DNA from: Candidatus Latescibacterota bacterium
GTDB taxonomy: Bacteria; Latescibacterota; UBA2968; UBA8231
Assembly: GCA_965215195.1 (NCBI GenBank)
Contig: CBDCDC010000002.1
Location: forward strand, 2,752,001-2,816,000
Reading direction: 5' to 3'
DNA: 64,000 nucleotides
Shown here: in pieces, positions 4,134 through 58,304 of the stretch
How the letters are laid out: the number at the start of each line of letters is the position of its first letter
Position numbering within the stretch: position 1 is the first letter of the stretch
Translations under genes and position numbers: made by a program
The notes under the pieces: model-generated
Told to the model about the DNA's origin: nothing
The model's database searches: none
The model's input: only the letters and a program-made list of their open reading frames with translations

Positions 4134-5351
4134 GTGTCTTTTGACAACTAAAGTTATGGATGCGATATTCATGTCGAATCTCCAGCGCGAACTGATACCT
4201 GAGGAGTCTAGATATGAAGAAATATATCGTGCGTCTCCCCGACGAAGCGCGTCAGCAGTTAGAAGCTCTGGTCAGCACAGGTCACGCCCCAGCCTACAAG
4301 ATCAAACACGCGAATATACTTTTGAAAGCCGATGCAGCAGGGCCCTGCTGGACAGATAGGGCTATTGCGGAAGCATTCGCCTGCCATAGAGTCACCGTCG
4401 AAAACGTTCGGAAACGTTTTGTAGAGCACGGGATGCAGGCGGCCTTAGAACGTAAAAAGCGCGTACAGCCGCCCCGCGAGAAGATTCTGGATGGAGCCGG
4501 TGAAGCCCGTTTGATCGCGCTGGCTTGTAGCCATCCCCCCGAAGGACGCAACCGCTGGACATTGGAGTTACTGGCCGACACGTTGGTCGAACTCAACGTG
4601 GTGGACTCCATTTCGTATCGCACGGTGGGACGGACGCTAAAAAAAACGAATTGAAGCCGCATCTGCGTACCTGTTGGGTGATTCCACCTGAACAAAATGC
4701 AGCCTTTGTAGCCTGCATGGAAGATGTTCTGGATCTGTATCATCGGCCCTACGATCCGAAAAGGCCTTGGGTGTGCATGGATGAGCAGCCCATCCAGTTG
4801 ATTGGAGAAACCCGTATCCCGCTGCCCGCACGGCCTGGACACCCCCAACGGTATGATTACGAATACGCGCACAATGGCACAGCGGTCAATTTTCTGTTTA
4901 CAGACCCCTTGGCCGGTTGGCGCAAGGTCAATGTGCGCTCACGCAAGACCGCTGTGGACTGGGCTTTTGAAATCAAAGAGCTATTGGAGGTGGATTATCC
5001 AGATGCTGAAGTGGTCTTGGTGGTGTGTGATAATCTCAACACGCACACGATTGCCGCTTTGTATGAAGCGTTTGAACCGGCCCAAGCGCGCCGGTTAGTT
5101 AGACGACTTGAGTTGCATTACACCCCCAAACATGGCAGTTGGCTCAATATCGCTGAAATTGAGTTGCGCATTTTGTCCCAGCAATGTCTAAATGCGCGCA
5201 TACCCGATGAAGAGACCTTGAAGGCGGAAACCCACGCTTGGGAACAGGCACGCAACGAAAACCAGAAAGCCGTGGACTGGCGGTTTACCACCGATGATGC
5301 GCGCATTAAACTGAAACGGCTTTACCCAAAATTTTAAGTGTCAATAGATAC
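4134..5351 (+). mobile_element. IS630-family element
   Basis: Imperfect IRs GTGTCTTTTGACA / TGTCAATAGATAC; TA duplication at 4132-4133 and 5352-5353. Confidence 0.9.
4214..5337 (+). CDS. IS630 transposase in two frames (HTH orfA 4214-4654, DDE orfB 4651-5337), probably joined by a -1 frameshift
   Basis: A8 run at 4639-4646; CMDE, DNLNTH and TPKHGSWLNIAEIE motifs. Confidence 0.9.
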
Positions 5352-5358
5352 TAGTGGG

Positions 5359-6144
5359 CTACAAGCTAAATTCCGCGATGGACAAGCGGACGAATCCATT
5401 TTCATCGGGTTGCAACCCGTGCCACTGAACCAGCAGGTTGAAGGTGGCCATGGCAAAGCTCAGATGCGCTCTAAAGTAGGCCCAGGCTCGATGGGTCTGT
5501 CGCTTGAAGTGCCCGATGCGGGTCAGCATGGAAAAGACGGTCTCGATGACCATACGCTCGCCCCACGTTTTGCGGGGACACACTTTCAGATTGGCCGGAT
5601 CACCGGCTTTGGCATGAAAGCCTTGGTCGCTGAGGAGGATCATCTGCTCTTCGTAGCGGCCAATCATCGGGTGAAAGACCGTATCGTGGACATTGGCGGT
5701 ATTACAATCCCAATCGACGATCAAGCCCCATTGGTTGACGATCAAGCCCAGCTTGCCGCCGACGATCCAGCGGTGATTGGACCGCCCTTTCCGGCCGATA
5801 GGGTGAGCGGAGCGGCCTTCGCGTACTGGATGGATCAACTCGATGCCATAGCTATCGATCACGCCTAAAGGGGTGGGGTCCGCTCGAAAGCGATCGGTCC
5901 AGTCCGCATGGGCGGCAAACAGGCGGAACAAGCGGGTGCGCTCGGGCAGGCGCGGAAAAAAGGCGCGCCAATCGCGCGCTACCCAGCGATAAAACGCCCG
6001 TTTGCCGCCCCCTTTGAGCGCATACAGAACCGCCAAGGTCACCGTTTCGCTGGGATATAAGGCGGCTTGGGGGTGTTTGGGCACATCGCCCATCTGGTGG
6101 TCGATTCGACAGAACAGGGCTATTATAAACTCGGCCGTGGTCAT
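5359..6144 (-). CDS. IS982-family DDE transposase
   Basis: IDSYGIE, GGKLGL, SDQGF and RMVIETVFS motifs; AAGGAG RBS before MTTAEF. Confidence 0.85.
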   Translation of the reverse strand: MTTAEFIIALFCRIDHQMGDVPKHPQAALYPSETVTLAVLYALKGGGKRAFYRWVARDWRAFFPRLPERTRLFRLFAAHADWTDRFRADPTPLGVIDSYGIELIHPVREGRSAHPIGRKGRSNHRWIVGGKLGLIVNQWGLIVDWDCNTANVHDTVFHPMIGRYEEQMILLSDQGFHAKAGDPANLKVCPRKTWGERMVIETVFSMLTRIGHFKRQTHRAWAYFRAHLSFAMATFNLLVQWHGLQPDENGFVRLSIAEFSL

Positions 6145-54496: not shown

Positions 54497-57400
54497 CTAA
54501 CCCACCGGCAGTCCGACAAAGAGCCGGCTGGACACGCTGCTCAGCGGCTCAACTTCGCCGCGCTCGGCCGCCCTAGCAAAGACTACGCCCGGCTGCGCGG
54601 CCCGAGCGGCCCGGCCCAAGACGTGATAATCGGCCCGGCCGGGCTGTTGGGCCGCTTCCCGCGCCTCGCTCCAGCCCTCGTTGGTGGCGGCCAGACCCCA
54701 CAAGGCACGCGGTGCCCGCACCTTGGCCTCCTCCACCGACAGGCCATCGCGCCAACAACCGCGCTGGGCGAACAAACTACCATCTTCCCGACAGATCAGC
54801 CCACCACCCACGTATTGGATCACCTGCTGTTGGTTGCCTCGCGCCCCCGATAGCGTCAACAGGGCTAGGGGCCCCAAGTCGTTGTCGGCGAAATCGGCCT
54901 GCTGGTAGAAAGCCGCCACTAACTCGTCGCTGTACATTTGCCACTCGTCCCCATGGACCTCTTTGGGTTGCTCTGGCCACTCCTTGCCCGAACCGAGGAA
55001 GGGGTTGAAGGAGGCCCCTGACTGCTTGCAGACCTCAAAGCCGCGCCGCGTCAGCCGGTCGAGTACATCCAGCGCTCGCTCCAAACCCTCGCGCTGCAGC
55101 ACCTGAGCGAGCAAGCGATTGAGATCGCGCTTGGTGAACAGCCGGCTGCCATCCACCGCCATTCCGGTCAGCCCCTCCACTTCGGCACGGCCTTCCTCCG
55201 TGCGACACAGCCGCGCCAAGCCCCATGTCATGCCGTGATAGTTGTCGGCCACGTAACGCCAGACATCCGCATCGCGCTGGATGTGTCCGGCCACCGACAG
55301 CGCGGTCTCGGCTTCGGCCTGGGCTTCCTCGGTGAGGGGCAAAAACACCTCGATGGAGTCGCCGTCGAAATCTAGCTCCATTAGTCGGCAAACGCGCGGA
55401 TGGACGCGCACTGCGGCCCCGGCCAAGCGCTGCGGGCGAAAGGCCACCACTGCGGTGGACATTGGGCCTTCGTCAACCAGCATCCGCTGGGCGCTGTACA
55501 GCAGCACCCACGAGCGCGCCATGATCGCGTCCAGAGCCTCAGTCGCCCGGGCCGAGCACCGCACCACTTCGTCGGCGCGACCTATCTCCCGCTCCACCTG
55601 AGGCCCGAACAAAGCCCAAGCCATTTCTTCGGGCAGGCCCACTTGGTCGAGATTCAGCTCAAATCCCGAGACGAGCGCGGCCCGGCCGCTAAACAGCGGT
55701 CTGGCCCGGAAGTGAAGGTGGTCCGGGCGCAACAACGCGGCGAAAAAATCCGCCACCCGCTGGGCCACTCGGGCCATTGCCGGTCCGACTAGGGGCTCCG
55801 GGGCCTCGCTGTCAACGACGCGCTGCAAGCGCGTATTGGCTTCGACCAAATCCTCGAAGCAGCCTCGGATTGGGTCGAACTCGGTTTCCGCGGGCAAAGC
55901 GACGGGAGCGCCCACCGTCCCCACTTGGCGTCCCGGAGCCCACGGGTGCGGCACGGGCTGGGCTAGGGTCAGCCCCTCGGGCTCGGCAAAGGAGAAGCGC
56001 AACGTTGCACTCGCTAACTCGGCTCGTATCCCGGCCATACCCAACAACTGCTGTAACAAGGCAAAGCGCGGGGATGGTGGGGGAGACGGGGATATTGGGC
56101 CAGAGGTCAAGTGCTGGCCCAGCGCATGGGCGTCGGCCCGCTCGGCCGCGGCCGTGTTGAACAAAGCGTGGATATTGGCTACGGCCCCGGCCTCGCACAA
56201 CGCTCCGTAGGCCATCATGTCGAGCTCTGGTCCGCCGACTCCTGCGACCGCAGTTTCCAAGCGCTCGGCCGCGGTGTGGGTGCGGCCCCAGTACACCCAA
56301 CCCACAGTGCTGCGATAGGGCAGCTTTGCGCCTTGGAGGGTCAGTTGCTCCATGCCGTCTCGGGGCAGTCCCGCCGCCGCCAGACGCGCTTTTAACGTCT
56401 CTTCGCTGGGTGCTCGAAAAGGCGGCACCACGGCCGGAGTCCCTTCGGCTTGGGCGAGGCGGCCCATGACTGCCTCGCGCTGTTGGCCGAAATTGAGCCG
56501 CGAGATCATACTGGTAGGACTGAAAATGAGTTCTAGCGGTGCCCCATCGGGCAACTGCGGCATATCGGCGTCGGGCAGGATGCGCGTCACCACCCCTTTG
56601 GCGCCGTGGCGGTTGCTCATGCGGTCGCCCACTCCCACTGCGGCGGGAAAATCCATCCGCGCCGCGGCCGATTCGCTGATGACCAAGCCATCCTCAAACG
56701 TGTCTCCGTCCCACATGATGAAGGCGGTCAGCAGATTGTAGCCACCCCAAAAGTCGGGGGCTTCGGGCTCGTACCCGGTCTGTACTAGGGCTGGCTCGGG
56801 TTTGTTGCCCTTGGAGGCCAAGCGCTGATCGTACTGCTGGCGGAACCAGCCCGTGGAGTGGACCGGTGCCCCTGTAGCGGCCGCGCTCGTCCACTGGCGC
56901 ATCATATTGACGCCCATCAGGGCGCGATTGGTATCGTCGTGTTCGAGGAAGGGGACCATGGAGGCCGAAAAACCCAAAATGCTGTCGGGCGCTGGGTCGA
57001 TCCGTTCGAGCTTGCCGTCGCGGATGCGGGCCCCGCGGGCGACTTCGAGTACGCGGCCGATATTGGGTCCCTCGGGGGTGCAGTAGGGGCATACTAGGCC
57101 GTATTGGCTGTAGGGGAAAACGTCTTGGCTGTCAAAAGACGCGACGACCAGCCGCCGCAGATGGGTATAGCGGTCGAGCCAGTTGGTCGCCTGTAGGTAC
57201 TGCGAGGTTTCCTCCAAGTGGAAGTCGCGCATCCAAGCGTCTAGCGGCAGCCAGTTGTGCACCAAGTCGCCGTCCCAAGCCAACTGCTCGGGGGCCGCCT
57301 CCAACCTCTGGTCAATAAAATCGCAGAGCTGCTCGCCCACGCACAGAATTCGCGCTTGCTCGAGCTCGCGCCGGTCGGGATAGGGGACCACGATCCGGTA

Positions 57401-57637
57401 GTTGCCCTCAATGCGGAAAAGGCCATCGCGGTCGGGCCGCGGCAGGTCGCGGTACTCAACCTCGACCGAGGCGTCGCCGAGTCCCAAGCTCAGTTTAATG
57501 GAAAAAGTATAAGGGCCCTGTTGTTCGACTTGATAGTCGGCCAGCGGCAGGCGCTTACCCAAGAGCCGGGGCAGTCGCTGGTGGACGAAAAGGTCAAAGG
57601 ACTCCCTGTGCCAAGGTACGTCGAGATTCAATGTCAT
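54497..57637 (-). CDS. Miniaturised single-chain RNA polymerase beta-beta' fusion protein
   Basis: RpoB motifs (CPYCTPEGPNIG, PFLEHDDTNRALMG.NM.RQ, FEDG..ISE, GDRMSNRHGAKGVV) followed in order by RpoC motifs (SGR....GLP..MA..LF.P, VHP.VC...DFDGD, SGARG, AA..G..E.L). Confidence 0.88.
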   Translation of the reverse strand: MTLNLDVPWHRESFDLFVHQRLPRLLGKRLPLADYQVEQQGPYTFSIKLSLGLGDASVEVEYRDLPRPDRDGLFRIEGNYRIVVPYPDRRELEQARILCVGEQLCDFIDQRLEAAPEQLAWDGDLVHNWLPLDAWMRDFHLEETSQYLQATNWLDRYTHLRRLVVASFDSQDVFPYSQYGLVCPYCTPEGPNIGRVLEVARGARIRDGKLERIDPAPDSILGFSASMVPFLEHDDTNRALMGVNMMRQWTSAAATGAPVHSTGWFRQQYDQRLASKGNKPEPALVQTGYEPEAPDFWGGYNLLTAFIMWDGDTFEDGLVISESAAARMDFPAAVGVGDRMSNRHGAKGVVTRILPDADMPQLPDGAPLELIFSPTSMISRLNFGQQREAVMGRLAQAEGTPAVVPPFRAPSEETLKARLAAAGLPRDGMEQLTLQGAKLPYRSTVGWVYWGRTHTAAERLETAVAGVGGPELDMMAYGALCEAGAVANIHALFNTAAAERADAHALGQHLTSGPISPSPPPSPRFALLQQLLGMAGIRAELASATLRFSFAEPEGLTLAQPVPHPWAPGRQVGTVGAPVALPAETEFDPIRGCFEDLVEANTRLQRVVDSEAPEPLVGPAMARVAQRVADFFAALLRPDHLHFRARPLFSGRAALVSGFELNLDQVGLPEEMAWALFGPQVEREIGRADEVVRCSARATEALDAIMARSWVLLYSAQRMLVDEGPMSTAVVAFRPQRLAGAAVRVHPRVCRLMELDFDGDSIEVFLPLTEEAQAEAETALSVAGHIQRDADVWRYVADNYHGMTWGLARLCRTEEGRAEVEGLTGMAVDGSRLFTKRDLNRLLAQVLQREGLERALDVLDRLTRRGFEVCKQSGASFNPFLGSGKEWPEQPKEVHGDEWQMYSDELVAAFYQQADFADNDLGPLALLTLSGARGNQQQVIQYVGGGLICREDGSLFAQRGCWRDGLSVEEAKVRAPRALWGLAATNEGWSEAREAAQQPGRADYHVLGRAARAAQPGVVFARAAERGEVEPLSSVSSRLFVGLPVG

Positions 57638-58258
57638 TCGCGTTCCTCCGGGTTATTAATAGCCTGCCAGGCTCGTGCGATCTGGCGGCGGCCGTGGTGC
57701 AGACGCGACTTTACAGTGCCTTCGGGAATGCCCAGTCGCTCGGCCGCGTCCCGCACTTCGACTTGGGCGTCGTAGATCAGACGGAAAACTTCGCGCTTGT
57801 CCTCGGACAACTCTTGTACTTGTCGCCGCAGCCAGCGCTGCTGGTCAGCCCATTCCACTTGGGCGTCGGGGTGCTCAGACGCAGCCTCAATCATCCACTC
57901 GGGCACTTGCTGCAATCATCCACTCGGGCACTTGCTGCGCCTCCTGCTGCACGGTTTCAGACAGCATTTCCAGCCGCTGCTCCCGCCGCCGCCGCACGGT
58001 GCGCAGGTGCGTCAGGGAAAGATGAGTGGCAATGCGGAACAGCCAGTTAGCCGCAGAGCCTCGACCGCTCCATTGGCCGGCCCGGTTCCACACTCGCAAG
58101 AAAACCTCCTGCACTACATCGTTAGCACTCGCATCGTCGCGGACGATGCAGCGCACGCGGTGGTGGACCTGCGCCCGATAGCGCTCAAAGAACTGCTCGA
58201 ATGCGCGTGCATCGCGTTCTTTTATTCGCGCTATGAGTTGTGGGTCCGGTATCTGCAT
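57634..58258 (-). pseudogene. ECF sigma-70 factor, frameshifted by a 25-bp tandem duplication
   Basis: Region 2 (DVVQEVFLRVW, WLFRIA) and region 4 (LGIPEGTVKSRLH) are in different frames; CAATCATCCACTCGGGCACTTGCTG is repeated at 57888 and 57913. Confidence 0.88.
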
Positions 58259-58278
58259 TGAGGCCCTCTGCAGATAAA

Positions 58279-58304
58279 GACGCCGCCCGGAAGGCATAGG
58301 TTCA
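58279..58304 (-). promoter_or_regulatory. ECF-type promoter TGAACC-N16-CGTC
   Basis: Minus strand reads TGAACC tatgccttccgggcgg CGTC, about 20 bp before the sigma ATG. Confidence 0.7.

Follow-up and report, generated by a model that had tools for sequence, protein, structure and literature searches.

Several described RNA polymerases offer points of comparison for a single-chain mini RNA polymerase that is encoded directly behind a sigma factor of the extracytoplasmic function (ECF) type in a Candidatus Latescibacterota bacterium (GenBank assembly GCA_965215195.1, contig CBDCDC010000002.1, positions 2,752,001 to 2,816,000 of the forward strand; this whole stretch of 64,000 nucleotides is hereafter “the window,” and coordinates without a locus or genome name are window positions). 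The bacterial core enzyme (beta and beta') with an ECF (group IV) sigma resembles the pair in its two barrels, fork, switch 2, clamp helices, and bridge helix, and the module's sigma is likewise built of regions 2 and 4 and comes with a GAAC...GTC promoter; unlike that core, the mini polymerase is one chain of 1046 amino acids (aa), as against 1264 plus 1380 aa, with a private sigma. Natural beta::beta' fusions (PRK09603 and PRK14844, ~2850 aa) also carry both subunits on one chain and in the same order. Yet these fusions are full-size and are the cell's only polymerase, whereas the mini polymerase is a third of their size and exists beside a normal rpoB and rpoC; against the PRK09603 and PRK14844 fusion models it scores 147.8 bits, where the cut-off is 5372.

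The closest architecture is that of Orf6 of the yeast killer plasmid pGKl2, an Rpb2::Rpb1 fusion of 982 aa that has lost about half of its coding sequence and works in a small transcription system of its own (PMC2919709). Orf6 is of eukaryotic descent, is carried on a cytoplasmic linear plasmid, and has no sigma, whereas the mini polymerase is bacterial-type and chromosomal. YonO of prophage SPbeta is described as a single chain of ~100 kDa with two barrels and without a trigger loop, active in vitro as a DNA-dependent RNA polymerase, and having no more than a few catalytic residues in common with the polymerases of cells (PMC5467207); the mini polymerase, in contrast, aligns with them over hundreds of residues. 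YonO is also phage-borne, with no known sigma partner, whereas the mini polymerase was not found in the phage, plasmid, and IMG/VR collections. Specifically, none of 32 matches in the phage collection (50,697 records) and none of 68 in the plasmid collection (72,556 records) covers 80% of the mini polymerase, the annotated ones being ordinary rpoB or rpoC, and IMG/VR holds no family member, its 47 matches being distant (21–53% identity, mostly over 4-kb beta plus beta' spans). The polymerases of jumbo phages are split rather than fused and have no sigma, and the flap is described as a sigma-binding insert (PMC7824862). Finally, the arrangement recalls an ECF sigma with a co-transcribed anti-sigma, with which it shares an autoregulated promoter, the sigma, and a tightly coupled second gene—though here the second gene encodes a polymerase with a conserved active site and not a zinc-finger or membrane anti-sigma. 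Literature searches that did not extend to Iyer and Aravind (2012) or to the ECF classification's supplements found no description of a truncated beta::beta' chain that has a sigma of its own, in agreement with an initial annotation of this DNA that recognised no described system. The parts are thus known ones, in an arrangement and a degree of reduction that appear not to have been described before.

Our main finding is that a promoter, a sigma, and a one-chain polymerase with a conserved active site form a conserved triad that is inherited and lost as a unit. In the window, all of its features lie on the reverse strand. An ECF-type promoter (58279–58304) precedes the sigma gene (ATG at 58258), which runs into the mini polymerase gene (54497–57637), whose 1046-aa product is a trimmed beta (~residues 1–546) fused to a trimmed beta' (~591–1046). 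The sigma stop TGA and the polymerase ATG overlap as ATGA at 57634–57637. Both this overlap and the promoter ahead of the two genes had been pointed out in the initial annotation, and both are present as it gave them.

Related loci were collected from a set with one genome for each species. Two peptide patterns matched 202 stretches there, of which 186 encode a relative, and 79 loci were analysed. By their record titles (i.e., submitters' labels) the loci belong to Latescibacterota, Gemmatimonadota, Poribacteria, Chloroflexota, Planctomycetota, Armatimonadota, and Hydrogenedentota. The initial annotation had proposed a coupled operon, as either a dedicated module or a core-mimic anti-sigma, and asked whether homologs keep an adjacent ECF sigma; they do, and this adjacency together with the joint gain and loss of both genes supports the coupled operon and the dedicated module. 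Tblastn with both sigma halves places a same-strand ortholog upstream of the polymerase in 75 of the 79 loci: in 71 it comes directly before the polymerase, with an overlap or a short gap, and in four (L054, L056, L065, and L066) 1.2–2.0 kb before it. The 4-base overlap of the window recurs in 25/79. The four loci lacking an upstream ortholog are L062, which has no upstream DNA, L017, L023, and L074. When all frames of 80 loci were clustered, polymerase and sigma were the only shared families and the flanks differed; the next families were alternative frames of both genes or were restricted to at most 20 syntenic close relatives, and no conserved anti-sigma or sensor was found among these frames. 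Different gapped loci carry a different gene between sigma and polymerase, and such insertions occur in one genus-level group (g31). The inserted gene of L065 (L065:4165-5958, same strand) encodes a 597-aa protein that looks, by eye from its translation, like an ATP-binding cassette (ABC) exporter, and that of L054 (L054:4783-5928, same strand) an unrelated protein of 381 aa.

Presence and absence across the phylum follow the same pairing. Among 168 genomes of the phylum, counted by hand at thresholds of best E ≤1e-100 for the polymerase and ≤1e-45 for the sigma, 66 have the polymerase and 63 a sigma ortholog; both genes occur in 62 genomes and neither in 101. The polymerase occurs alone in four genomes—G141 (a 300-aa remnant), G151 (= L023, truncated), G154 (contig edge), and G148 (= L017)—and the sigma alone in one (G161, contig edge). 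Full-length sigma orthologs score 253–332 bits in these genomes, where other ECF sigmas reach at most 127 bits. Across 465 pairs of 31 loci, sigma and polymerase distances are correlated (r 0.83, mean 0.49 each), a pattern that co-inherited neighbours would show as well. One genome of 8.4 Mb, G076, holds two complete pairs (C1:1427408-1431186 and C1:3367758-3371737), with polymerase scores of 1491.5 and 1058.3 bits and sigma scores of 292.7 and 289.4 bits.

The module is accessory and often lost. In the window's own genus, 22/31 genomes have a polymerase match and 9/31 do not, and those without it include assemblies of 1 to 3 contigs (G138, G143, and G144). It has also been inactivated independently several times. 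Sigma and promoter are cleanly deleted at L017:5900-6010, both genes have internal deletions at L023:5850-6030, and only a 300-aa piece of the polymerase is left at G141:C1:3423468-3424364.

On profile comparisons, the mini polymerase derives from the bacterial enzyme and is not a remote cousin: its 39-member family profile gives E 6.4e-77 against solved bacterial beta and E 8.8e-49 against solved beta'. Pfam recognises three polymerase domains on the one chain: Rpb2_3 (residues 146–205, E 4.2e-07), RNA_pol_Rpb2_6 (best stretch 335–452, E 5.4e-29), and Rpb1_2 (best stretch 729–780, E 2.2e-11). An AlphaFold2 model is confident (predicted local distance difference test, pLDDT, 89.7; predicted template modelling score, pTM, 0.87), and its best Foldseek matches are beta and beta', both bacterial and plastid. 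The gene is present as a single copy in its genome, which has normal rpoB (1264 aa) and rpoC (1380 aa) genes elsewhere, and it is not accompanied by a gene for an alpha or omega partner. NCBI family models for rpoB, rpoC, and the beta/beta' fusion gave 13 matches, each under its own cut-off and led by rpoB (157.2 bits, cut-off 801). A search of a protein collection returned 872 proteins at E ≤0.001 among 8000 scored candidates, a set that may include ordinary beta or beta' subunits; every named protein among the best 120 of these matches is labelled “hypothetical protein.”

The catalytic residues are well kept in an alignment of 39 members that are ~45–90% identical to the window's mini polymerase. 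In the beta' motif DFDGD (residues 756–760, 55358–55372; ELDFDGDS at 754–761), F757, D758, G759, and D760 are each found in 39/39 and D756 in 36/39. The beta active-site motif GDRMSNRHGAKG (residues 337–348, 56594–56629) aligns with GDKMAGRHGNKG of solved beta subunits, and the basic residues of the beta barrel (GDK...RHGNKG in known beta) are retained as R343 (39/39), K347 (36/39), and a K or R at 339 (39/39). An FED at residues 314–316 has its D316 in 36/39 and its E315 in 33/39. Along the beta part, residues 128–207 are the fork, carrying CPYCTPEGPNIG; residues 206–267 contain PFLEHDDTNRALMG; residues 275–325 are the first half of the barrel, including FED; residues 333–452 include GDRMSNRHGAKG and the sequence after it; and residues 334–546 align with host beta 1030–1260, to its end (E 4.7e-47). 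The beta' part, residues 591–993, aligns in one piece with host beta' 276–787 (hhalign, probability 99.8, E 2.6e-29). This alignment begins at the clamp helices, has gaps at the rudder stretch, and then passes through switch 2 (RPLFSGR), DFDGD, SGARG, and the bridge helix. The beta' clamp helices, a coiled coil on which sigma region 2 usually docks, occupy residues 585–635 (55733–55885; model helices 585–609 and 614–635), with N601 and P613 in 39/39 members, R603 in 34/39, and R606 in 33/39.

Other parts of the enzyme are missing. The site of the beta flap is reduced to residues 325–333 (56639–56665), which span ~135 residues (796 to 932) of solved beta, and the region is just as short in all 39 aligned members. 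By hhalign, the first 275 of the 1380 residues of host beta' have no counterpart in the mini polymerase. At the other end, the alignment stops at host beta' residue 787 and only ~50 residues remain after the bridge helix, so the trigger loop is absent, as are all later beta' parts; Pfam likewise does not find an Rpb1_5 domain in the protein. Overall, the mini polymerase has retained the two catalytic barrels, the fork, and the C-terminus of beta, along with the clamp helices, switch 2, and the bridge helix, and it lacks the beta flap, beta lobe, beta' N-terminus with its zinc domain, rudder, and trigger loop.

The N-terminal domain (residues 1–127) stands apart. An alpha-like origin was considered because an alpha::beta::beta' protein exists in G104, a genome of the same family, and was rejected, as hhalign aligned only 7 columns (E 0.16). 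Folded alone (pLDDT 86.2), the domain has no Foldseek match at E ≤0.001; it compares with structure 3mlq_A at a template modelling (TM) score of 0.50 and E 0.24. Entry 3mlq_A is the beta1 domain of a bacterial beta, and an SFxxF motif like that of beta N-termini suggests the same identity; we regard a reduced beta1 domain at residues 1–127 as a lead, not a finding. The triple fusion itself (L114:3024-8783, forward strand, = G104:C1:33023-38782) is a 1919-aa frame in which Pfam finds RNA_pol_L and RNA_pol_A_bac (residues 20–197), then Rpb2_3, Rpb2_6, and Rpb2_7, and then Rpb1_2 to Rpb1_5. Similar frames occur in G103 and G155. No sigma is found among the immediate neighbours of the G104 frame, and G104 also carries the sigma plus mini-polymerase module.

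The sigma is of ordinary ECF build. Intact orthologs are 192–245 aa long, with regions 2 and 4 only, and the sigma scores 101.8 bits against the general ECF superfamily model TIGR02937 (cut-off 42.9), reaching none of the NCBI equivalog or subfamily cut-offs; the main text of PMC7826278 does not mention Rpb1, Rpb2, or RpoB. Between the two regions, the linker has an acidic run followed by a near-invariant P-x-W-(M/L)-(I/V)-D ... G-P-(D/E), a motif outside the generic ECF models, with P111 and W113 in at least 90% of orthologs (columns ~110–135; window ~57880–57960). In the window, the sigma frame is not intact. It is split into an N part (57887–58258; region 2 and linker, Pfam Sigma70_r2 E 1.5e-14), which ends at a premature stop at 57887, and a C part in another frame (57634–57915; region 4, Sigma70_r4_2 E 5e-14), by an exact 25-bp tandem duplication at 57888–57938 (2.0 copies, 100% match, Tandem Repeats Finder). 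The duplicated codons, QVPEWMI, fall exactly in the linker motif. Close relatives have intact sigmas that are 83–90% identical to the N part and 88–94% to the C part, and in relatives both halves share one frame (tblastn). Contigs of runs X1 and X2, which are other samples of one study, lack the 25 bases at 57888 and otherwise show 2 differences in ~1240 bases each, so the duplication is younger than the split of these strains. A contig of run X3 is identical to the window, duplication included; the duplication is therefore present in reads and not only in this assembly, although X3 may be the source sample and hence not independent. Because this recent duplication breaks the sigma, the cassette is probably switched off in this strain.

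The promoter is the third conserved element. Typical ECF promoters combine a GAAC block at -35 with a CGTC-like block at -10, and the window's site has this layout: TGAACC (58304–58299), a 16-base spacer, and CGTC (58282–58279), ~20 bases before the sigma start. The pattern GAAC-N16-NNGTC precedes the sigma in 72 of the 76 loci with a sigma match, usually 52–58 bases from the start codon, with the consensus TGAAC(C/T)T ... CGGTGTC ... AGTAGAGG. Four loci do not have the motif at its usual place. L028 and L046 space it differently, L070 offers no upstream DNA, and in L073 a 3.9-kb insertion intervenes (L073:1483 and 5300-5380), with the motif 3.9 kb farther upstream and just a -10 half left before the sigma, as if the promoter had been split. 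In L074, the one locus that combines an intact mini polymerase and a promoter with the absence of an adjacent sigma (none within 5 kb), the motif stands directly before the polymerase gene, and a 143-aa frame just upstream (L074:4107-4538) looks by eye, from its translation, like an IS200-type transposase. A two-block matrix finds exactly one site above 17 bits in 73 of the 79 loci and two sites in none, so inserted genes and the polymerase have no promoter of this type of their own.

The window promoter is more than a chance match. A weight matrix derived from the motif at related loci, with the window's site included in the set, ranks it as the best of 12.27 million positions in its 6.13-Mb genome (33.6 bits vs. 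21.9 for the next). With the two-block matrix alone, the values are 24.6 and 21.8 bits; the next-best site falls within a frame of 413 aa on the opposite strand. In five other genomes, the exact pattern TGAAC-N15-GGTGTC gave 29 matches, as against 4 for a reversed control, and only the modules' own promoters score high (core 26–35 bits in four genomes; the fifth genome's own promoter has another -10 block, which the exact pattern does not match). The remaining 25 matches reach at most 22.7 bits and are mostly inside long frames. A scan for sigma-70-type promoters returned 1 where 0.8 were expected and a terminator scan 8 where 3.7 were (standard deviation 2.1), and neither was used. A crude tally of downstream gene orientation (57 opposite, 18 same, and 3 none, of 78) was likewise set aside, as it took a wrong polymerase frame at several loci. 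Contigs of RNA run X19, 85–95% alike, cover parts of the sigma and the polymerase; such libraries can hold DNA, and the contigs are no evidence of transcription.

We favour the interpretation that the triad is a self-contained, self-driving two-gene module in which the ECF-type sigma and the mini polymerase work as a holoenzyme, and we consider the case for it to be evenly balanced. The two genes would be transcribed together from a promoter of the type read by that sigma, and the sigma would dock on the retained clamp helices and so give the mini polymerase its promoter specificity. If the sigma does direct the mini polymerase to this promoter, the cassette would drive its own expression, as a positive loop that leaky or host-made transcripts could start; in lineages with a gene between sigma and polymerase, the inserted gene would ride along. 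A pair fold of polymerase residues 1–800 with the intact sigma of the relative L019 bears on the docking step. It scored 0.57, and the best of 3 controls scored 0.00; contact agreement between the runs is at least 59%, and the partner pLDDT is at least 66. The pass mark is reached by 58/80 solved complexes and 2/110 mismatched pairs, and passes at ≤0.60 comprise 7 of the 80 solved complexes and both passing mismatches. As sigma–core complexes have already been solved, the pass may reflect likeness to them, and the model lends weak support to binding of the sigma by the mini polymerase.

A number of observations count against a holoenzyme, among them that the pair fold goes no further than this weak support. 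The mini polymerase lacks what canonically anchors sigma region 4 (the beta flap, and beta' before residue 276), which leaves the reading of the -35 block by a mini holoenzyme unexplained. The clamp helices of ordinary polymerases also bind other factors (e.g., NusG), so keeping them is no proof of sigma binding. Regions 2 and 4 of the sigma resemble those of ordinary ECF sigmas, and the sigma could equally bind the host core. A second promoter of this type was not found in the window's own genome or the five others, where weaker or differently spaced sites would escape, and the holoenzyme would accordingly have no known target but itself. The frequent loss and breakage of the module, as counted above for its own genus, weigh in the same direction.

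The main rival, which the initial annotation had not raised, is that the sigma is instead an auto-activating switch that uses only the host core, with the mini polymerase, once made, acting without a sigma on other templates, such as nicked or single-stranded DNA or RNA, as some one-chain two-barrel polymerases do. The normal seat of region 4—the flap and the beta' N-terminus—is what the mini polymerase lacks, the sigma is a typical ECF factor by its TIGR02937 score, its promoter has the strict two-block layout of ECF promoters read by the host, and the genome yielded no other promoter of this type. YonO, moreover, is a one-chain relative without a trigger loop and an active polymerase, and whether it needs a factor is not known (PMC5467207). 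We nevertheless think this explanation rather unlikely, given that a regulator with just one target gene seldom remains tied to it, with a promoter almost unchanged, across seven phyla, that the clamp helices are retained and partly conserved, that the pair fold weakly supports binding, and that no conserved sensor or anti-sigma lies nearby to make the sigma signal-dependent. The initial annotation had left the choice between a holoenzyme and an RNA polymerase decoy, i.e., a core mimic that sequesters its own sigma and is not an enzyme. Of these, the holoenzyme stays plausible, on the strength of the clamp helices and the weak pair fold and in spite of the missing region 4 docks, and the decoy is disfavoured because a mere decoy would not need conserved catalytic residues, of which F757, D758, G759, D760, and R343 are each present in 39/39. 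The mini polymerase does occupy the usual position of an anti-sigma, the gene after an ECF sigma often encoding one; the sigma-docking clamp helices are there, and no classical anti-sigma is conserved nearby. Yet DFDGD, RHGxKG, FED, switch 2, and the fork are conserved over ~50% sequence divergence, ~1000 residues of a polymerase core predicted to be well folded are kept, Pfam finds polymerase domains only and no anti-sigma domain, and there is no detectable sigma regulon beyond the cassette that would call for restraint. A decoy is, in our judgement, very improbable.

A further possibility concerns this strain alone and fits any reading of the intact family: the cassette may be a freshly inactivated remnant that is nearing loss, and we lean slightly towards this. 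The 25-bp duplication frameshifts the sigma, and it is present in the X3 contig and absent from the 99%-alike X1 and X2 contigs. The same genus contains L017 and L023 with their deletions and nine genomes of 31 without a copy; G141 has its single 300-aa piece, and the promoter of L073 is split by its insertion. On the other side, the polymerase frame of the window is intact and the promoter matches the motif of close relatives, X3 may not be independent of the window, and a tandem duplication can revert by slippage, such that the break may be a reversible off state.

If the holoenzyme reading is true, no sigma-dependent polymerase smaller than this pair would be known, a sigma would need far less core for promoter-specific initiation than thought, and the module would define a minimal core that a sigma can program—something so far approached only via deletions in the large enzyme. 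The compact set of sigma, polymerase, and promoter would also be a ready-made orthogonal expression system. The broadest version of this reading, which we advance tentatively and with somewhat more doubt than confidence, is that at least seven phyla hold a second, orthogonal transcription machine of cellular descent: a two-protein, self-amplifying holoenzyme of ~1250 residues, made of a private ECF sigma and a one-chain core, that would initiate at its own promoter and do without alpha and omega as well as the flap, zinc domain, rudder, and trigger loop. If the sigma is only a switch, the mini polymerase would represent a new chromosomal family of one-chain polymerases in poorly studied phyla. 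The patchy spread and frequent loss of the module point to an accessory role, possibly in stress or conflict, and under either reading several hundred “hypothetical” proteins would get a name.

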